Assembly (NCBI GenBank): GCA_026396875.1
Contig: JAPLVY010000004.1
Coordinates: 10,828 to 74,827, forward strand
DNA from: Candidatus Falkowbacteria bacterium
GTDB lineage: Bacteria > Patescibacteriota > Patescibacteriia > Patescibacteriales > UBA12465
Direction of reading: 5' to 3'
DNA: 64,000 nt
In this document: piece after piece, positions 11,307 through 15,629 of the stretch
Layout: the number at the start of each line of letters is the position of its first letter
Numbering within the stretch: position 1 is the stretch's first letter
Notes under the pieces: model-generated
Database searches by the model: none
What the model was told of the DNA's origin: nothing
Seen by the model: the letters and a program-made list of their open reading frames with translations, nothing else
Position numbers and translations under genes: made by a program

Positions 11307-11335
11307 TTGACAAAAGCTTATTCATATGATATGAT
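11307..11335 (+). promoter_or_regulatory. sigma70-type promoter for the Ubl cassette (TTGACA-17-TATGAT)
   Basis: ttgaca at 11307-11312, a 17-nt spacer, and tatgat at 11330-11335. It lies about 58 nt upstream of the ATG at 11393. Confidence 0.55.
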
Positions 11336-11392
11336 ATTTTGTTACTTGAACATTAAAAATTAAATAAAAATAAACGTAAAAACAAAGTACAC

Positions 11393-13630
11393 ATGGGACA
11401 AAAACCAAATTCAGTTAGTCGATTCTTAGAGATTCCGCTAATTATTATCTTTTTATTTCTGAGCGCTTATGGCTTGGTTCTGACGAATGCCTGGGTCGTG
11501 GATGTTACAACCTTTGCTTCCGATGGAGATTTTGCCAAGGTGATTAGTGAGAAACACACCAAAAAATTTCTGGATTCCTACAAAGCAGAGTGGCAGAAAA
11601 AGTATCCCTACGCCGACTTAGAAAGTAAGCAGTTCAAAAAATTGCTTGCGCTAGTAGGACAGATTGAGACAAATCGGCTCAACAAACAATTGGAGTATCT
11701 CTCGGGAAGAGATGATCCTCGGATTACAACATCATCGCCAGAGCTTGCCTCTTTAAGCAAAGAGCTGGAAGATGCGCGACACGAAAAAATCTTGAGCGTT
11801 CTCGGTGAAAACAAGGACACTAGATTTTGGATTTTATTTATTAAAGGGTTATTGATGAATGTAATTTCTTTAATCGTTTTGATCTTTCTTAGCGGAAAGG
11901 AGTCCAGATTAACTAATTTGTACCTCTTTGAAGAACTTGATGAGGATGACGGTAGCCGTATCCTTGTTACGTTTCTTCCTGCGGTAATATTTCTTGTTTG
12001 TCAGTTGGTGATTTTTGTTAAAGTTTTTGGTGAGAATTGTAGTATTGTTAGAGTGGGCATGATCTTCATCGTTACGGTCGCAATTCAATTCTTGTTCCGT
12101 TGTTTTGTTTTCGTGCCAGCCGCTAGCAATTTGCATAAGGGGATTAGTATCGTGATGGATTTTTTTTCTTATCACTGGGTTAAATACAGCTTTAAGGATG
12201 ACATTTTCAATGTTCAAGTCCTTGAATACTTGCAAAGCAAAGGAAGCTTTTTTATTGTTAGCGAAAGTGGTGCGGAAAAGATAGAAATCCAGAAGCGTAA
12301 TCTTCGCAGAGGCAGCAGAGGTATCTCATTTTTTGAAAGACGAGGACTTGGTTCGGTTTCTTTGGACAAGTTTTATGGTTTGCTCACTAAAGGTGCGAAA
12401 GAAGATGCCTTCGTGAGTTTGCAGCAGAAAATGGCTCATAAAGTTGATGGTTATTTTGACCACCAGGAAGAGCGCGAAACAATTAATTATCTGGACAAGA
12501 TTATCGCTAAGATTAGGAAGGACGCTGAAAAAAAATTAGCCAAGGGTAGAATTCTTGGTTCCGGCAAGCGCGAAAGCGTGTCTGAGCTCATGATGGCCAG
12601 CTTGGCGACAAAAGCGCTGAGATCTTTCCGCAAGGAATTAATTGCTGGCAGCGAAAAAACAGTTGTAGCTATTACGGACAGCTTGAAAGACTCTCTAAAA
12701 TCGGAAATTTGCAATAGTATTGCCTGTTACGATTCTTCTAGCCCAATAAGATTACCTTCAAATGCTAGGTTCTTCTTATCTCGCGGGAAGGTTACATTGT
12801 TTGTGATGGAACAAGCGCCACAGATCAGAACTATTCAGTATTGTGGCAAAAGATTCCGCTTAGCTTTCCCCTACACGGTTTTTATAGCAGTTTTTAAAGA
12901 AGAATATTTTCAAAACCTTTTATTCTTCTTTAGCAATAAACCATTAAAAACTATTGATGACGAAATCTTCTTGGCCACTCTTAATAATATTGGCAATGAA
13001 GGATATGTTTGTATGGGATCGTCAGCGGTTGATGAGATTTCGAGAACTCAAGGATCTTTAGCGGAAAAGGCGGAAGTCGCAGTTTCTTGTTTTTGGCAGA
13101 CACCATTCAACGGGGATCTTTCCACCGTTCGTGAGTCCTATGCTTCACAAAAGCAGTACAAAAGCTATGGCGCTTGGGAACGGTATTCTGAAAAAAATAG
13201 TTTATTCCCCTTGGGCGTATCTTTTACTTCAGCGGGAACTCTAACCAAAAAGCTCGAAGATATTTTTAGCGATGAGTCTAGTCTTTCGAAGAATATGCTG
13301 ACTCAGGTTGACTCTTGGTTTAACATCAATGAGTCTAATCTGAGGGAGCAAATTCTAAAACTTTGGAGCACAGTGGAGTTAAGACCATTTAATGCCGAAG
13401 CCATTAGGAACATCAGGGGAGAAAAAGATGAAGAGGTAGATAAGATTTTTGGAGAGATTAAAGAAATTTGTCTGAAAAATCTTGGAGATGGCAGAATTAG
13501 TAAAAATTTTGTCAAAACTATCAATAAGGCTGTTGCCTCTGCGGTAGGCAATGACCTCTTGAAATTAGAACCCCTTATTCCCCTTGAACGGAAGATCTCA
13601 TTCGATGAGTTAATTTCCGAAAGCCTTTAA
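11393..13630 (+). CDS. membrane-anchored E2/UBC-like protein (4 TM + unknown linker + prokaryotic E2-like core + helical tail)
   Basis: Hydrophobic helices lie at about aa 14-33, 145-166, 190-212 and 218-241. Residues 459-545 read RFFLSRGKVTLFVMEQ..RFRLAFPYTVFIAVF..LLFFFSN..DDEIFLATLNNIGNEGYVCMGSS. This resembles the strand pattern plus N-x-x-G-x-VC-x-G catalytic loop of E2-like proteins (Cys540, codon 13010-13012). It is the first gene of a JAB/E1/Ubl operon. Confidence 0.55.
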   Translation: MGQKPNSVSRFLEIPLIIIFLFLSAYGLVLTNAWVVDVTTFASDGDFAKVISEKHTKKFLDSYKAEWQKKYPYADLESKQFKKLLALVGQIETNRLNKQLEYLSGRDDPRITTSSPELASLSKELEDARHEKILSVLGENKDTRFWILFIKGLLMNVISLIVLIFLSGKESRLTNLYLFEELDEDDGSRILVTFLPAVIFLVCQLVIFVKVFGENCSIVRVGMIFIVTVAIQFLFRCFVFVPAASNLHKGISIVMDFFSYHWVKYSFKDDIFNVQVLEYLQSKGSFFIVSESGAEKIEIQKRNLRRGSRGISFFERRGLGSVSLDKFYGLLTKGAKEDAFVSLQQKMAHKVDGYFDHQEERETINYLDKIIAKIRKDAEKKLAKGRILGSGKRESVSELMMASLATKALRSFRKELIAGSEKTVVAITDSLKDSLKSEICNSIACYDSSSPIRLPSNARFFLSRGKVTLFVMEQAPQIRTIQYCGKRFRLAFPYTVFIAVFKEEYFQNLLFFFSNKPLKTIDDEIFLATLNNIGNEGYVCMGSSAVDEISRTQGSLAEKAEVAVSCFWQTPFNGDLSTVRESYASQKQYKSYGAWERYSEKNSLFPLGVSFTSAGTLTKKLEDIFSDESSLSKNMLTQVDSWFNINESNLREQILKLWSTVELRPFNAEAIRNIRGEKDEEVDKIFGEIKEICLKNLGDGRISKNFVKTINKAVASAVGNDLLKLEPLIPLERKISFDELISESL

Positions 13631-13637
13631 GAACATT

Positions 13638-13675
13638 AATTCTCGCTCCCTTGTTTATCGAGGCGAGCGAGAATT
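13638..13675 (+). promoter_or_regulatory. 11-bp perfect hairpin in the spacer between the E2-like and JAB genes
   Basis: aattctcgctc (13638-13648) pairs with gagcgagaatt (13665-13675) across a 16-nt loop. No T-run follows. Confidence 0.4.
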
Positions 13676-13728
13676 ACTACTTTAAACATAAATATTGCAT
13701 TTAAACCAAAAAAAACAAAAAAATAGAA

Positions 13729-14619: not shown

Positions 14620-15280
14620 AGTTATTGGAGCTGGGGGTATCGGCAGCATTTTACTGCCGACCCTATGCCGTTTTCTAAACGCCAGCGGCGAACAGGTAGT
14701 TATCACTATTATCGATGGCGATGACTATGAGAATAAAAACCAAACCAGGCAGCTGTTTTCCAGATTGGGGAACAAGGCCAAGGTTAGTGTAGAAAAACTA
14801 AGTGGAGAGTTCCCAGGGATAGTCTTCCAGGCTAAACCAGAATACCTCACTGATAAATCGGCATTGTACTTATTGAAAGATGGAGATATTATTTTCTCCT
14901 GCGTCGATAATCACAAGACCCGTTTATTGATCTCCGACTTTTGTAGCGAAGAGCTCGAAAATGTCGTATTGTTTTCTGGCGGTAATAGTTTTACCGATGG
15001 TAATATACAAATTTTTATCAAAAAAGACGATAAAAATCTAACTTTACCGATCGCTAACTCTTATCACCCAGAAATCATGAAGCCATCCGACAGAAGGCCG
15101 GATGAAATCGGTTGCGGAGAGCTAATCGTCTCCGAACCACAGTTAATATTCACCAATAACGCCGTGGCCACTTTAATGCTCAATGCGTTTTACAGCCATT
15201 TCTATAACGGTGGCTGTGATTACAACGAAGTGTACGTGGATATTTTGACTAATAATAGCAGGTCAGTACAAAGAACTTGA
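14606..15280 (+). CDS. ThiF/MoeB/Uba-type E1-like adenylyltransferase (minimal, 224 aa)
   Basis: MKHVKVIGAGGIGS is a Rossmann GxGxxG motif. IIDGDDYENKNQTRQ (14714-14752) matches DxDx5NxxRQ, and CVDNHKTRLL matches DNxxxR. There are no CxxC zinc pairs and no rhodanese domain. I prefer the ATG at 14606 over the track's TTG at 14582. This start overlaps the JAB stop by 14 nt. Confidence 0.8.
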   Translation: MKHVKVIGAGGIGSILLPTLCRFLNASGEQVVITIIDGDDYENKNQTRQLFSRLGNKAKVSVEKLSGEFPGIVFQAKPEYLTDKSALYLLKDGDIIFSCVDNHKTRLLISDFCSEELENVVLFSGGNSFTDGNIQIFIKKDDKNLTLPIANSYHPEIMKPSDRRPDEIGCGELIVSEPQLIFTNNAVATLMLNAFYSHFYNGGCDYNEVYVDILTNNSRSVQRT

Positions 15281-15305
15281 CAATAAATAAGTTAACTGTT
15301 ATAAT
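15277..15305 (+). promoter_or_regulatory. perfect consensus sigma70 promoter (TTGACA-17-TATAAT) in front of the Ubl gene
   Basis: ttgaca at 15277-15282 overlaps the E1 stop codon tga at 15278-15280. The spacer is 17 nt and tataat is at 15300-15305. The Ubl ATG is at 15362. Confidence 0.6.
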
Positions 15306-15361
15306 TAACTCATCATTAAAAATCAAATAATTAACTTAACATCAAAAAAACAACAGAAAAG

Positions 15362-15574
15362 ATGAGCAAAGCAGTAAAAGTGATTTGTGGTGCCAACGAA
15401 CAAGAAGGCGCAGCAGGGTCAACCGTTAAGGAAACCCGCAACAATTTTCAGGAAGTTCTGAACATCCCAAAAAATGCAGAAGCATTTGTTGGTGGAAAGA
15501 AGGTGAAAGAAGGGCATGTCCTTGCAGAAGGAGATTCCCTGGAGTTCATCAAACCAGCCGGCGACAAAGGGTAG
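15362..15574 (+). CDS. ubiquitin-like beta-grasp protein (ThiS/MoaD-like), C-terminus ...AGDKG-stop
   Basis: 70 aa. AFVGGKKVKEGHVLAEGDSLEFIKPAGDKG follows the ThiS/MoaD C-terminal pattern (V-x-G..V......L..GD.ie.i....G). It is the last gene of the E2-like/JAB/E1 operon. Confidence 0.7.
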   Translation: MSKAVKVICGANEQEGAAGSTVKETRNNFQEVLNIPKNAEAFVGGKKVKEGHVLAEGDSLEFIKPAGDKG

Positions 15575-15596
15575 TTTGGCGAAAACACAATATAAA

Positions 15597-15629
15597 GAAA
15601 GAAGTATCATTGATACTTCTTTTTTCTTT
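15597..15629 (+). terminator. intrinsic terminator of the Ubl cassette
   Basis: (a)aagaagta / tacttctt(t) forms a stem of about 10 bp centred near 15610. It is followed by tttttctttg. Confidence 0.6.

Follow-up and report, generated by a model that had tools for sequence, protein, structure and literature searches.

A compact candidate ubiquitin-like conjugation cassette with a membrane-tethered E2-like protein in Candidatus Falkowbacteria

The four-gene locus

A 64,000-nucleotide stretch of contig JAPLVY010000004.1, referred to here as the window, belongs to a Candidatus Falkowbacteria metagenome-assembled genome (MAG) and carries four co-directional genes on its + strand, g1 to g4. Their products resemble the parts of a protein-conjugation system: a membrane protein with an E2-like domain, a JAMM metallopeptidase, a minimal E1 enzyme and a ubiquitin-like protein (Ubl). 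The general idea of prokaryotic operons that combine E1, E2, JAB and Ubl genes comes from Iyer et al. 2006 (PMC1779556). Family membership, residue conservation and gene linkage make it quite probable that this cassette is a complete minimal module for Ubl conjugation and deconjugation. Its features are as follows, with positions counted from the first letter of the window.

11307-11335, + strand: P1, promoter-like site upstream of g1, TTGACA-17-TATGAT, TG-extended, 11/12 matches (consensus match only)
11393-13630, + strand: g1, 745-aa membrane protein with a putative E2-like domain, first gene of the conserved quartet (open reading frame)
11426-12115, + strand: N-terminal membrane region of g1, residues 12-241, four predicted transmembrane (TM) helices (Kyte-Doolittle scan)
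12740-13267, + strand: putative E2-like core of g1, residues about 450-625, with Asn532 (12986-12988) and Cys540 (13010-13012) (Prok-E2_D match, conservation, hhalign)
13729-14619, + strand: g2, 296-aa JAMM/MPN+ metallopeptidase, PRTRC_A-like (open reading frame, motif, NCBIfam)
14606-15280, + strand: g3, 224-aa minimal ThiF-family E1, Cys170 at 15113-15115 (open reading frame, Pfam ThiF)
15277-15305, + strand: P2, promoter-like site before the Ubl gene, perfect TTGACA-17-TATAAT, TG-extended, 12/12 matches
15362-15574, + strand: g4, 70-aa single beta-grasp Ubl ending ...AGDKG-stop, Gly70 codon at 15569-15571
15595-15625, + strand: terminator-like hairpin (14 bp, 3-nt loop) with a T-run after g4 (consensus match only)

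The four reading frames lie exactly where the first-pass annotation of this DNA had placed them, and each of the JAMM, E1 and g1 motifs that it listed is found in the sequence. NCBI lists identical proteins from a Candidatus Falkowbacteria MAG and calls them hypothetical. All four are real genes: homologues of each are numerous and keep their order and sizes across independent contigs. The g2 and g3 frames overlap by 14 nt. An alternative TTG start for g3 exists at 14582, and the ATG at 14606 is favoured because the homologues begin with MKxIKVIG.

The same annotation had bounded the cassette by P1 and the hairpin with its T-run and had given the Ubl gene a strong promoter of its own; a consensus scan recovers all of these sites. 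They are the top scorers of the scan, and similar -35/-10 pairs recur at matching positions in homologous loci, with P1-like sites upstream of the E2 gene in most loci of the TM type. The window-wide totals nevertheless show no excess over shuffled sequence, at 15 promoter-like sites against 11.6+/-3.2 and 6 terminator-like sites against 5.0+/-2.2, so the cassette sites are plausible, not proven, signals. The -35 box of P2 (15277-15282) overlaps the g3 stop codon (ACT TGA CA). It occurs at an equal position only in the closest relatives, loci L002, L004, L006 and L018, whose E1 and Ubl genes lie 74-96 nt apart, and it is absent in relatives with a gap of 8-40 nt. Only this sub-clade may thus express the Ubl separately and presumably at a higher level.

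Peptidase, E1 enzyme and ubiquitin-like protein

The peptidase g2 contains the JAMM motif HSHANFGAFHSPVD, in which HxHx7Sx2D corresponds to H129/H131/S139/D142 (14113-14154), and the upstream glutamate is Glu83 (13975-13977). Both elements of the predicted signature are therefore present, and all five residues are invariant in 77/77 g2 relatives. The first 176 residues span nearly the whole PRTRC_A model (43.3 bits, E=2.9e-11), and the match to Pfam Prok-JAB (6.7e-4, 20 bits) stays under the cut-off of 25 bits. Several of the 47 g2 homologues found are named PRTRC protein A by JGI, and about half have Prok-JAB on record. A search of g2 against PDB sequences detected no solved structure.

The E1 enzyme g3 displays the motifs GAGGIGS, IIDGDDYENKNQTRQ and CVDNHKTR, which had been read as adenylation-domain motifs of the ThiF/MoeB/Uba kind. 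Profile searches bear this out: the Pfam ThiF match (1.8e-19, 70.3 bits) exceeds its cut-off of 28.1, and the best NCBIfam match is PRTRC_ThiF (2.8e-22, 79.2 bits). G8/G10/G11/G13, D37, R48, Q49, K57, D101, N102, R106 and C170 are invariant in 86/86 g3 relatives. The sequence contains no CxxC pairs and no rhodanese domain, as had been noted for this 224-aa protein. The closest solved structures, Uba4, TcdA, MoeB, UBA5 and ThiF, match only the N-terminal half, with E values of 5e-9 to 5e-6.

The ubiquitin-like protein g4 was expected to be a 70-aa ThiS/MoaD-like protein ending in glycine, and structure prediction agrees. Its AlphaFold2 model, built with 51 homologues, has a mean confidence (pLDDT) of 90.9, and Foldseek returns beta-grasp proteins with a probability of 1.0 and TM-scores of 0.6-0.7, including ubiquitin, SUMO1, NEDD8, MoaD and TtuB. 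A C-terminal GxKG is conserved in the family, the terminal Gly being kept in 63/67 members. Some homologues carry 1-4 residues past this Gly (A, SQ, AL, RKM or RNM). A glycine end with such short extensions is the pattern expected for a modifier that is matured by a peptidase, as g4 and its relatives may be.

The E2-like membrane protein

Hydropathy supports the four TM helices claimed for g1, at residues 12-30, 147-165, 190-208 and 223-241, TM1 and TM2 being separated by a loop of about 115 aa. Because the number of TM segments is even and the N-terminus is basic, the protein probably has its N-terminus inside the cell and its E2-like domain in the cytoplasm.

The part of g1 that is shared with its family, residues about 440-625, is a domain of roughly 190 aa. 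A word-indexed search, which returned one relative, suggested that g1 was an orphan; an exhaustive profile search overturned this and retrieved 1,536 representative clusters at 50% identity, 860 of them at E<=1e-10. About 50 of the 1,536 are full-length proteins of the g1 type with 3-7 N-terminal TM segments. Cys540 lies in the motif NNIGNEGYVCMGS and is kept in 151/152 aligned family members, and Asn532 is kept in 148/152. P455, E473, P476, R479, P493, Y494, F567, W568, F572, N573, D575, W595 and F605 are likewise invariant or nearly so among these 152 sequences.

The family consensus NLPNIxxxGxVCLG resembles the UBC signature HPNIxxxGxICL, with Leu in place of the His of HPN. The spacing of eight between Asn532 and Cys540 equals that of N77 and C85 in UBE2D2. 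When the family was aligned by hhalign with four human UBC enzymes, whose sequences were validated against PDB, three runs gave P=5.5e-4, 1.5e-3 and 9e-4, and all three paired Cys540 with Cys85 and Asn532 with Asn77. Prok-E2_D is matched weakly by 7/10 sampled g1 relatives; one of the family, P0183, passes the gathering score at 29.8 bits and also matches PRTRC_B (1.1e-6). By its Pfam naming, Prok-E2_D belongs to the UBC clan, and the Prok-E2 families reportedly go back to Burroughs et al. 2011. As modelled by AlphaFold2 (pLDDT 94.6), the core consists of a six- to seven-strand meander, a Cys loop and then helices, and UBC enzymes are the most recurrent family among its weak Foldseek matches (10 of the top 50, TM-scores only 0.30-0.37).

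The regions outside the core were considered as a fused PRTRC E, F, ParB or AAA+ partner, and neither the N-terminal part (1-445) nor the C-terminal part (621-745) shows such similarity. A full-length profile of the g1 family searched against PDB returned only coiled-coil noise from the helical tail.

Relationship to PRTRC systems

The proteins of the cassette are distantly homologous to those of PRTRC systems (NCBIfam TIGR03734-03742), with g1, g2, g3 and g4 corresponding to B (E2-like), A (JAMM), ThiF (E1) and C (Ubl). The canonical operon on plasmid pPNAP01 of Polaromonas naphthalenivorans reads ParB-E-C-F-B-A-ThiF, and its B-A-ThiF order equals the E2-JAB-E1 order of the window. Both systems use a small single-domain E1 with a conserved Cys past the adenylation core. 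A tblastn search with g3 against plasmids finds a 'PRTRC system ThiF family protein' with ~28% identity over ~95% of its length. Family hidden Markov models (HMMs) built from the cassette recognize the pPNAP01 components PRTRC_B (1e-7), PRTRC_A (5e-17) and PRTRC_ThiF (2e-17). PRTRC_C, a 69-aa protein ending in ...AVGAKG, shares the GxKG tail of g4, with an HMM match that is not significant. The first-pass annotation had held that PRTRC was absent and that the architecture matched no characterised variant, a view that these homologies contradict.

By profile score, the window cassette is a PRTRC relative, not a member. The E1 scores 79.2 bits against a TIGR03736 cut-off of 144.75, and the peptidase scores 43.3 bits against a PRTRC_A cut-off of 101.8, as a homologue and not an equivalog. 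The NCBIfam PRTRC_B and PRTRC_C models give no match to g1 or g4 at E<=1. Unlike PRTRC, the cassette has no ParB, E or F gene, and no ParB or PRTRC D, E or F gene lies in its flanks, in line with the earlier statement that a ParB partner is missing. Its Ubl gene is downstream, whereas the PRTRC C gene is upstream, and its E2-like domain is fused to a four-TM N-terminal region of ~440 aa and a helical tail of ~120 aa. PRTRC systems reside on plasmids or integrative and conjugative elements, whereas the window cassette sits in a chromosomal housekeeping context.

Distribution and architectures

The cassette family is widespread. An E1 alignment searched against 185,579 GTDB species genomes yielded 143 relatives, of which 80 loci were kept for a quartet check, and 90 IMG/VR viral contigs with relatives yielded another 80 (L093-L172); the quartet was checked with family HMMs. 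E2 domain, JAB, E1 and Ubl genes occur in that order in most of the 80 GTDB loci and in at least 64/80 of the IMG/VR contigs, some of which reach 340 kb. Chloroflexota loci are instead ordered UBL-E2-JAB-E1. Contigs with JAMM homologues carry quartets of near-identical sizes (742-744, 262-297, 224-225 and 69-71 aa). The four-gene arrangement is no peculiarity of this genome and recurs in the candidate phyla radiation (CPR), Methylomirabilota, Chloroflexota and large phages. Only the fusion of E2 to the four-TM N-terminal region is special to the clade of the window.

The E2 proteins of the family take four forms:

625-790 aa: window type, with 3-7 TM segments at the N-terminus (about 50 representative clusters)
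405-435 aa: a single TM segment
215-545 aa: soluble
800-970 aa: viral type, with the E2 domain at the N-terminal end; in no case multi-TM

A neighbour-joining tree of the E1 proteins groups the loci by E2 architecture, placing the window in the multi-TM group and the viral type in a separate clade of 66. Because the E1 tree clusters in this way, the quartet genes evolve as a unit. The multi-TM form occurs in 0/80 viral loci; on this tree and from its surroundings, it is a cellular, mostly CPR, clade amid housekeeping genes. The whole family is a distant homologue of the PRTRC core, and its other branches are the huge-phage form, a soluble Methylomirabilota form, often accompanied by an AAA+ ATPase, and a Chloroflexota form.

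The huge-phage quartets (L093-L172, L008 and L010) share the families, order and invariant catalytic residues of the window cassette, and their E1 proteins are 40-50% identical to g3. They differ in that the E2 domain is N-terminal in a soluble protein of 800-970 aa (a form of about 850 aa), the Ubl of about 150-165 aa has an N-terminal extension, the JAB protein often has 400-600 aa and the E1 forms its own clade. The same soluble E2 protein and Ubl of ~150-165 aa are found at L049, L052, L067 and L082. The literature searched held no description of a huge-phage E2-JAB-E1-Ubl quartet. Several GTDB contigs labelled as archaeal MAGs carry this viral-type quartet and may be misbinned viral DNA. 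BFVD contains four uncharacterised Caudovirales proteins with the fold of the g1 core; tblastn of the E2 core against 50,697 GenBank phages gave no match, despite the relatives in IMG/VR and BFVD.

Other branches show additions of their own. In Methylomirabilota, an AAA+ ATPase gene (584-657 aa) lies directly upstream of the E2 gene in the same direction:

L022, 2680-4431: AAA+ gene
L046, 2675-4450: AAA+ gene
L053, 2669-4411: AAA+ gene
L038, 2610-4364: AAA+ gene
L042, 3133-5103: AAA+ gene

This points to a five-gene variant whose Ubl system may work with an unfoldase. A LysM-SLT transglycosylase gene stands near several of the Methylomirabilota loci and is probably syntenic, and Chloroflexota loci lie near resolvase and helix-turn-helix genes. 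Two or three tandem E2-like paralogues precede a single JAB-E1-Ubl set in L071 (2168-5169), L138, L056, L062 and L111, an arrangement in which one activation machinery may serve E2-like proteins of different target specificity. A second, longer ThiF-family gene (287-310 aa) follows the quartet by a few genes in L008 (11749-12681) and L010 (13140-14003); after it come 67-69 aa reading frames with no match to the Ubl HMM. The multi-TM cassette also occurs in L011, L016, L017 and L018, contigs titled 'uncultured Gammaproteobacteria' with neighbours as in CPR loci. L018 has neighbours in common with L006, as has L016 with the Buchananbacteria locus L019, and the taxonomic labels of these TPA assemblies look unreliable.

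Genomic context

The cassette is flanked by holA, a murL-murD fusion, polA, a tRNA-Ala gene, a LysM/M23 peptidase gene and iPGM. Housekeeping genes make up the remainder of the window, whose GC content matches that of the cassette. In L002 the cassette again lies between polA and an M23 peptidase gene, with a JAMM protein 47% identical to g2; in L004 and L006 it occupies unrelated positions. Other multi-TM cassettes have AlaRS, ribosomal proteins, RpoA, IF-1, H+-PPase, UvrD, FtsK and YchF as neighbours. No recurrent fifth gene, integrase or ParB was found at the multi-TM loci. Because these are lacking and the neighbours vary by locus, the cassette is self-contained, as first described, between PolA on one side and tRNA-Ala and the M23 peptidase on the other.

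The 3' end of tRNA-Ala(TGC) is repeated exactly, in direct orientation, over 19 nt (15854-15872 and 16029-16047), the tRNA gene itself occupying 16029-16102 on the minus strand. The extra copy, 175 bp from the tRNA, lies between the cassette terminator and the tRNA and may represent the scar of an att site or a piece of a tRNA; Rfam shows no credible RNA between the repeat and the tRNA. The cassette was considered as an island bounded by this repeat, which does not flank it. On the other side, an 870-aa reading frame (5176-7788, minus strand) is an apparent fusion of a MurL-like UDP-MurNAc-L-Ala-L-Glu epimerase (residues 3-439) with MurD (439-868). Its MurL part scores E=8.6e-124 in NCBIfam, below the cut-off, and its MurD part is above the cut-off. 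The syntenic L002 has separate Asp/Glu racemase and Mur ligase genes instead.

Proposed mechanism and alternative explanations

The mechanism builds on what is established here, namely the family identities, the conservation of the catalytic residues, the beta-grasp fold and the four-gene linkage; from these we infer all chemical steps, the topology, the position of Cys170 and the targets. The E1 enzyme g3, probably a homodimer, would bind g4 and adenylate Gly70 at the expense of ATP. The Ubl would then probably be linked to Cys170 of the E1 as a thioester. Transthiolation would pass it to Cys540 of g1, with Asn532 in the role of the HPN-motif Asn. Since four TM helices would hold the E2 domain at the cytoplasmic face of the membrane, the Ubl would be transferred to lysines of presumably membrane-proximal targets. 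The JAMM peptidase g2 would reverse the conjugation and, in relatives with 1-4 residues past the Ubl Gly, would also mature the precursor.

Several observations weigh against this scheme, most of them at the E2 step. Foldseek finds no significant PDB match for the g1 core (best E-value 0.23), a domain-only core profile retrieves nothing from PDB sequences at E<=10, and the hhalign probabilities against UBC enzymes are low, at 17-30%. The window protein reaches 20.6 bits against Prok-E2_D (PF14460; E=3.9e-4, residues 518-586) and so misses the gathering threshold of 25 bits, and it reads LNN where the family has LPN, with Asn for Pro. At the E1 step, Cys170 lies 69 residues after D101, a spacing similar to that in ThiF and MoeB, and its placement on the E1 crossover loop would follow from this spacing only. 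PADLOC assigns no defence system: it returns only weak g3 matches to the E1 half of Cap2-type E1-E2 models (best 3.4e-6) and nothing for g1, g2 or g4. Literature searches on PRTRC function, Prok-E2 and Patescibacteria or phage Ubl found no characterisation and no biochemical data, and the housekeeping context speaks neither for nor against a role in defence.

The difficulties at the E2 step leave room for an E1 that conjugates on its own, in the style of archaeal SAMP/UbaA or TtuB, with g1 as a scaffold, a receptor, the principal target or another Cys enzyme. The UBC fold is indeed not significantly recovered by Foldseek or the PDB profile search. Yet across 152 diverse sequences Cys540 is near-invariant and Asn532 stands at the exact E2 spacing, no conserved His of the papain-like protease kind appears, family members bridge to Prok-E2_D and PRTRC_B, and strict linkage ties g1 to the genes for E1, JAB and Ubl. 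Conjugation without an E2 is for these reasons unlikely. The E2-like module announced for the C-terminal part of g1 is supported by its Asn-x7-Cys motif and its weak Prok-E2_D and hhalign matches; its expected UBC-like structure found no significant counterpart in PDB. The g1 core is accepted here as a putative E2-like Cys domain of the Prok-E2_D/PRTRC_B lineage, with a candidate UBC fold and a weakly supported homology to E2 enzymes.

A sulfur-carrier system is highly improbable. Here g3 would adenylate and thiocarboxylate g4 for a cofactor, for tRNA thiolation or for a natural product, and the JAMM protein would only mature the carrier. Such a role would suit the Pfam ThiS matches of 23/51 Ubl family members, the additional Foldseek matches to MoaD and TtuB, and the nearest solved E1 relatives, Uba4, MoeB and ThiF. 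The Ubl nevertheless ends in GxKG and not GG, the E1 has neither a rhodanese domain nor a CxxC zinc site, and the quartet always includes a Cys-bearing E2-like protein, which would be superfluous for a sulfur relay. The gene neighbourhoods point the same way: homologous cassettes have neighbours with no relation to cofactor synthesis, and no thi/moa-type gene occurs there, in the flanks or among the 25/62 Pfam families listed for the remaining part of the window. The earlier statement that the window has no thiG/thiH/moaE-type partner accordingly stands for the flanks and, beyond them, for those 25 of 62 families. It is also very unlikely that the cassette is the remnant or cargo of a mobile element and serves that element, as assumed for plasmid and integrative PRTRC systems, and not its Falkowbacteria host. 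Its closest annotated relatives are plasmid PRTRC genes, relatives abound on viral contigs, its distribution among species is sparse (143 in 185,579 genomes), and the 19-nt tRNA-Ala repeat lies nearby. Against this, ParB, integrase and PRTRC E or F genes are missing, the GC content is that of the window, the repeat does not flank the cassette, and no viral locus has the multi-TM E2 form. Around TM-type loci lie core genes, ribosomal and tRNA-synthetase genes among them, and the polA-M23 position, kept in L002 despite a JAMM identity of 47%, suggests vertical inheritance.

Comparison with characterized systems

PMC11601596 describes three families of bacterial Ubl conjugation as characterised by experiment, namely CBASS Cap2/Cap3, Bil and Bub. 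The antiphage system Bil (BilABCD) resembles the cassette in its separate Ubl, E2, JAMM and E1 genes and in a presumed Cys-based cascade. Bil conjugation to lysines has been demonstrated, and the system is defined by a multidomain E1 (IAD-AAD-CYS) and an ISG15-like Ubl (PMC11601596), whereas the window has a single-domain E1 of 224 aa and a single 70-aa beta-grasp Ubl. No sequence-level match of the cassette proteins to any solved bacterial E2 or E1 was seen. Type II CBASS, defined by Cap2, Cap3 and a CD-NTase with an effector, likewise combines E1 and E2 chemistry with a JAMM antagonist, but in its Cap2 an E2 is fused to an E1, and the protein conjugated is the CD-NTase itself; the window has no CD-NTase, no E2-E1 fusion and a free Ubl.

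Bub (6E/DUF6527) is also made up of a peptidase and a bacterial set of Ubl, E1 and E2; its intermediates are oxyesters, on Ser in the E2 and on Tyr in the E1, and its peptidase is a DUF6527 serine protease (PMC11601596). The window family has a near-invariant E2 Cys, an invariant E1 Cys and a JAMM peptidase instead, with no DUF6527 match. ThiS-ThiF, MoaD-MoeB and the archaeal SAMP-UbaA-JAMM system pair a minimal adenylating E1 with a small beta-grasp carrier, and SAMP has a JAMM peptidase as well. These systems have no E2 and their carriers end in GG, whereas the window has a linked E2-like Cys protein and a KG end.

Biological role and significance

The role of the proposed conjugation module is the least certain part of its interpretation. 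Conflict between phage and host at the cell envelope is the leading guess, because the cassette is sparsely distributed and phage-borne relatives are abundant. Almost as plausible is the regulation of host proteins near the membrane. A more far-reaching reading, on balance doubtful, is that of a new membrane-localised Ubl system. In it, the membrane position of g1 or its extracytoplasmic loop would link what happens at the envelope, for instance phage attachment, DNA entry or contact with an episymbiont, to the tagging of proteins with Ubl at the inner face, and huge phages and their ultra-small hosts would both use the one cassette family in their conflict. If true, this would add a further mechanistically distinct pathway of bacterial ubiquitination to CBASS-Cap2/3, Bil and Bub, and the smallest known set of E1, E2, deubiquitinase and Ubl.

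The cassette is a variant of a predicted and known kind and not categorically new. Its interest lies in a ParB-less relative of the PRTRC type with E2_D proteins that is large (~1,500 clusters at 50% identity, at least 143 GTDB species and at least 90 IMG/VR contigs), has lost none of the catalytic residues and has distinct cellular and phage architectures. The Falkowbacteria set is very compact and Cys-based, with a 224-aa E1, an E2 core of about 190 aa, a 296-aa JAMM protein, a 70-aa Ubl and a membrane-tethered E2, which makes it an attractive minimal system for reconstitution. For CPR bacteria, whose physiology is largely unknown, the cassette offers a handle on protein regulation or phage defence.

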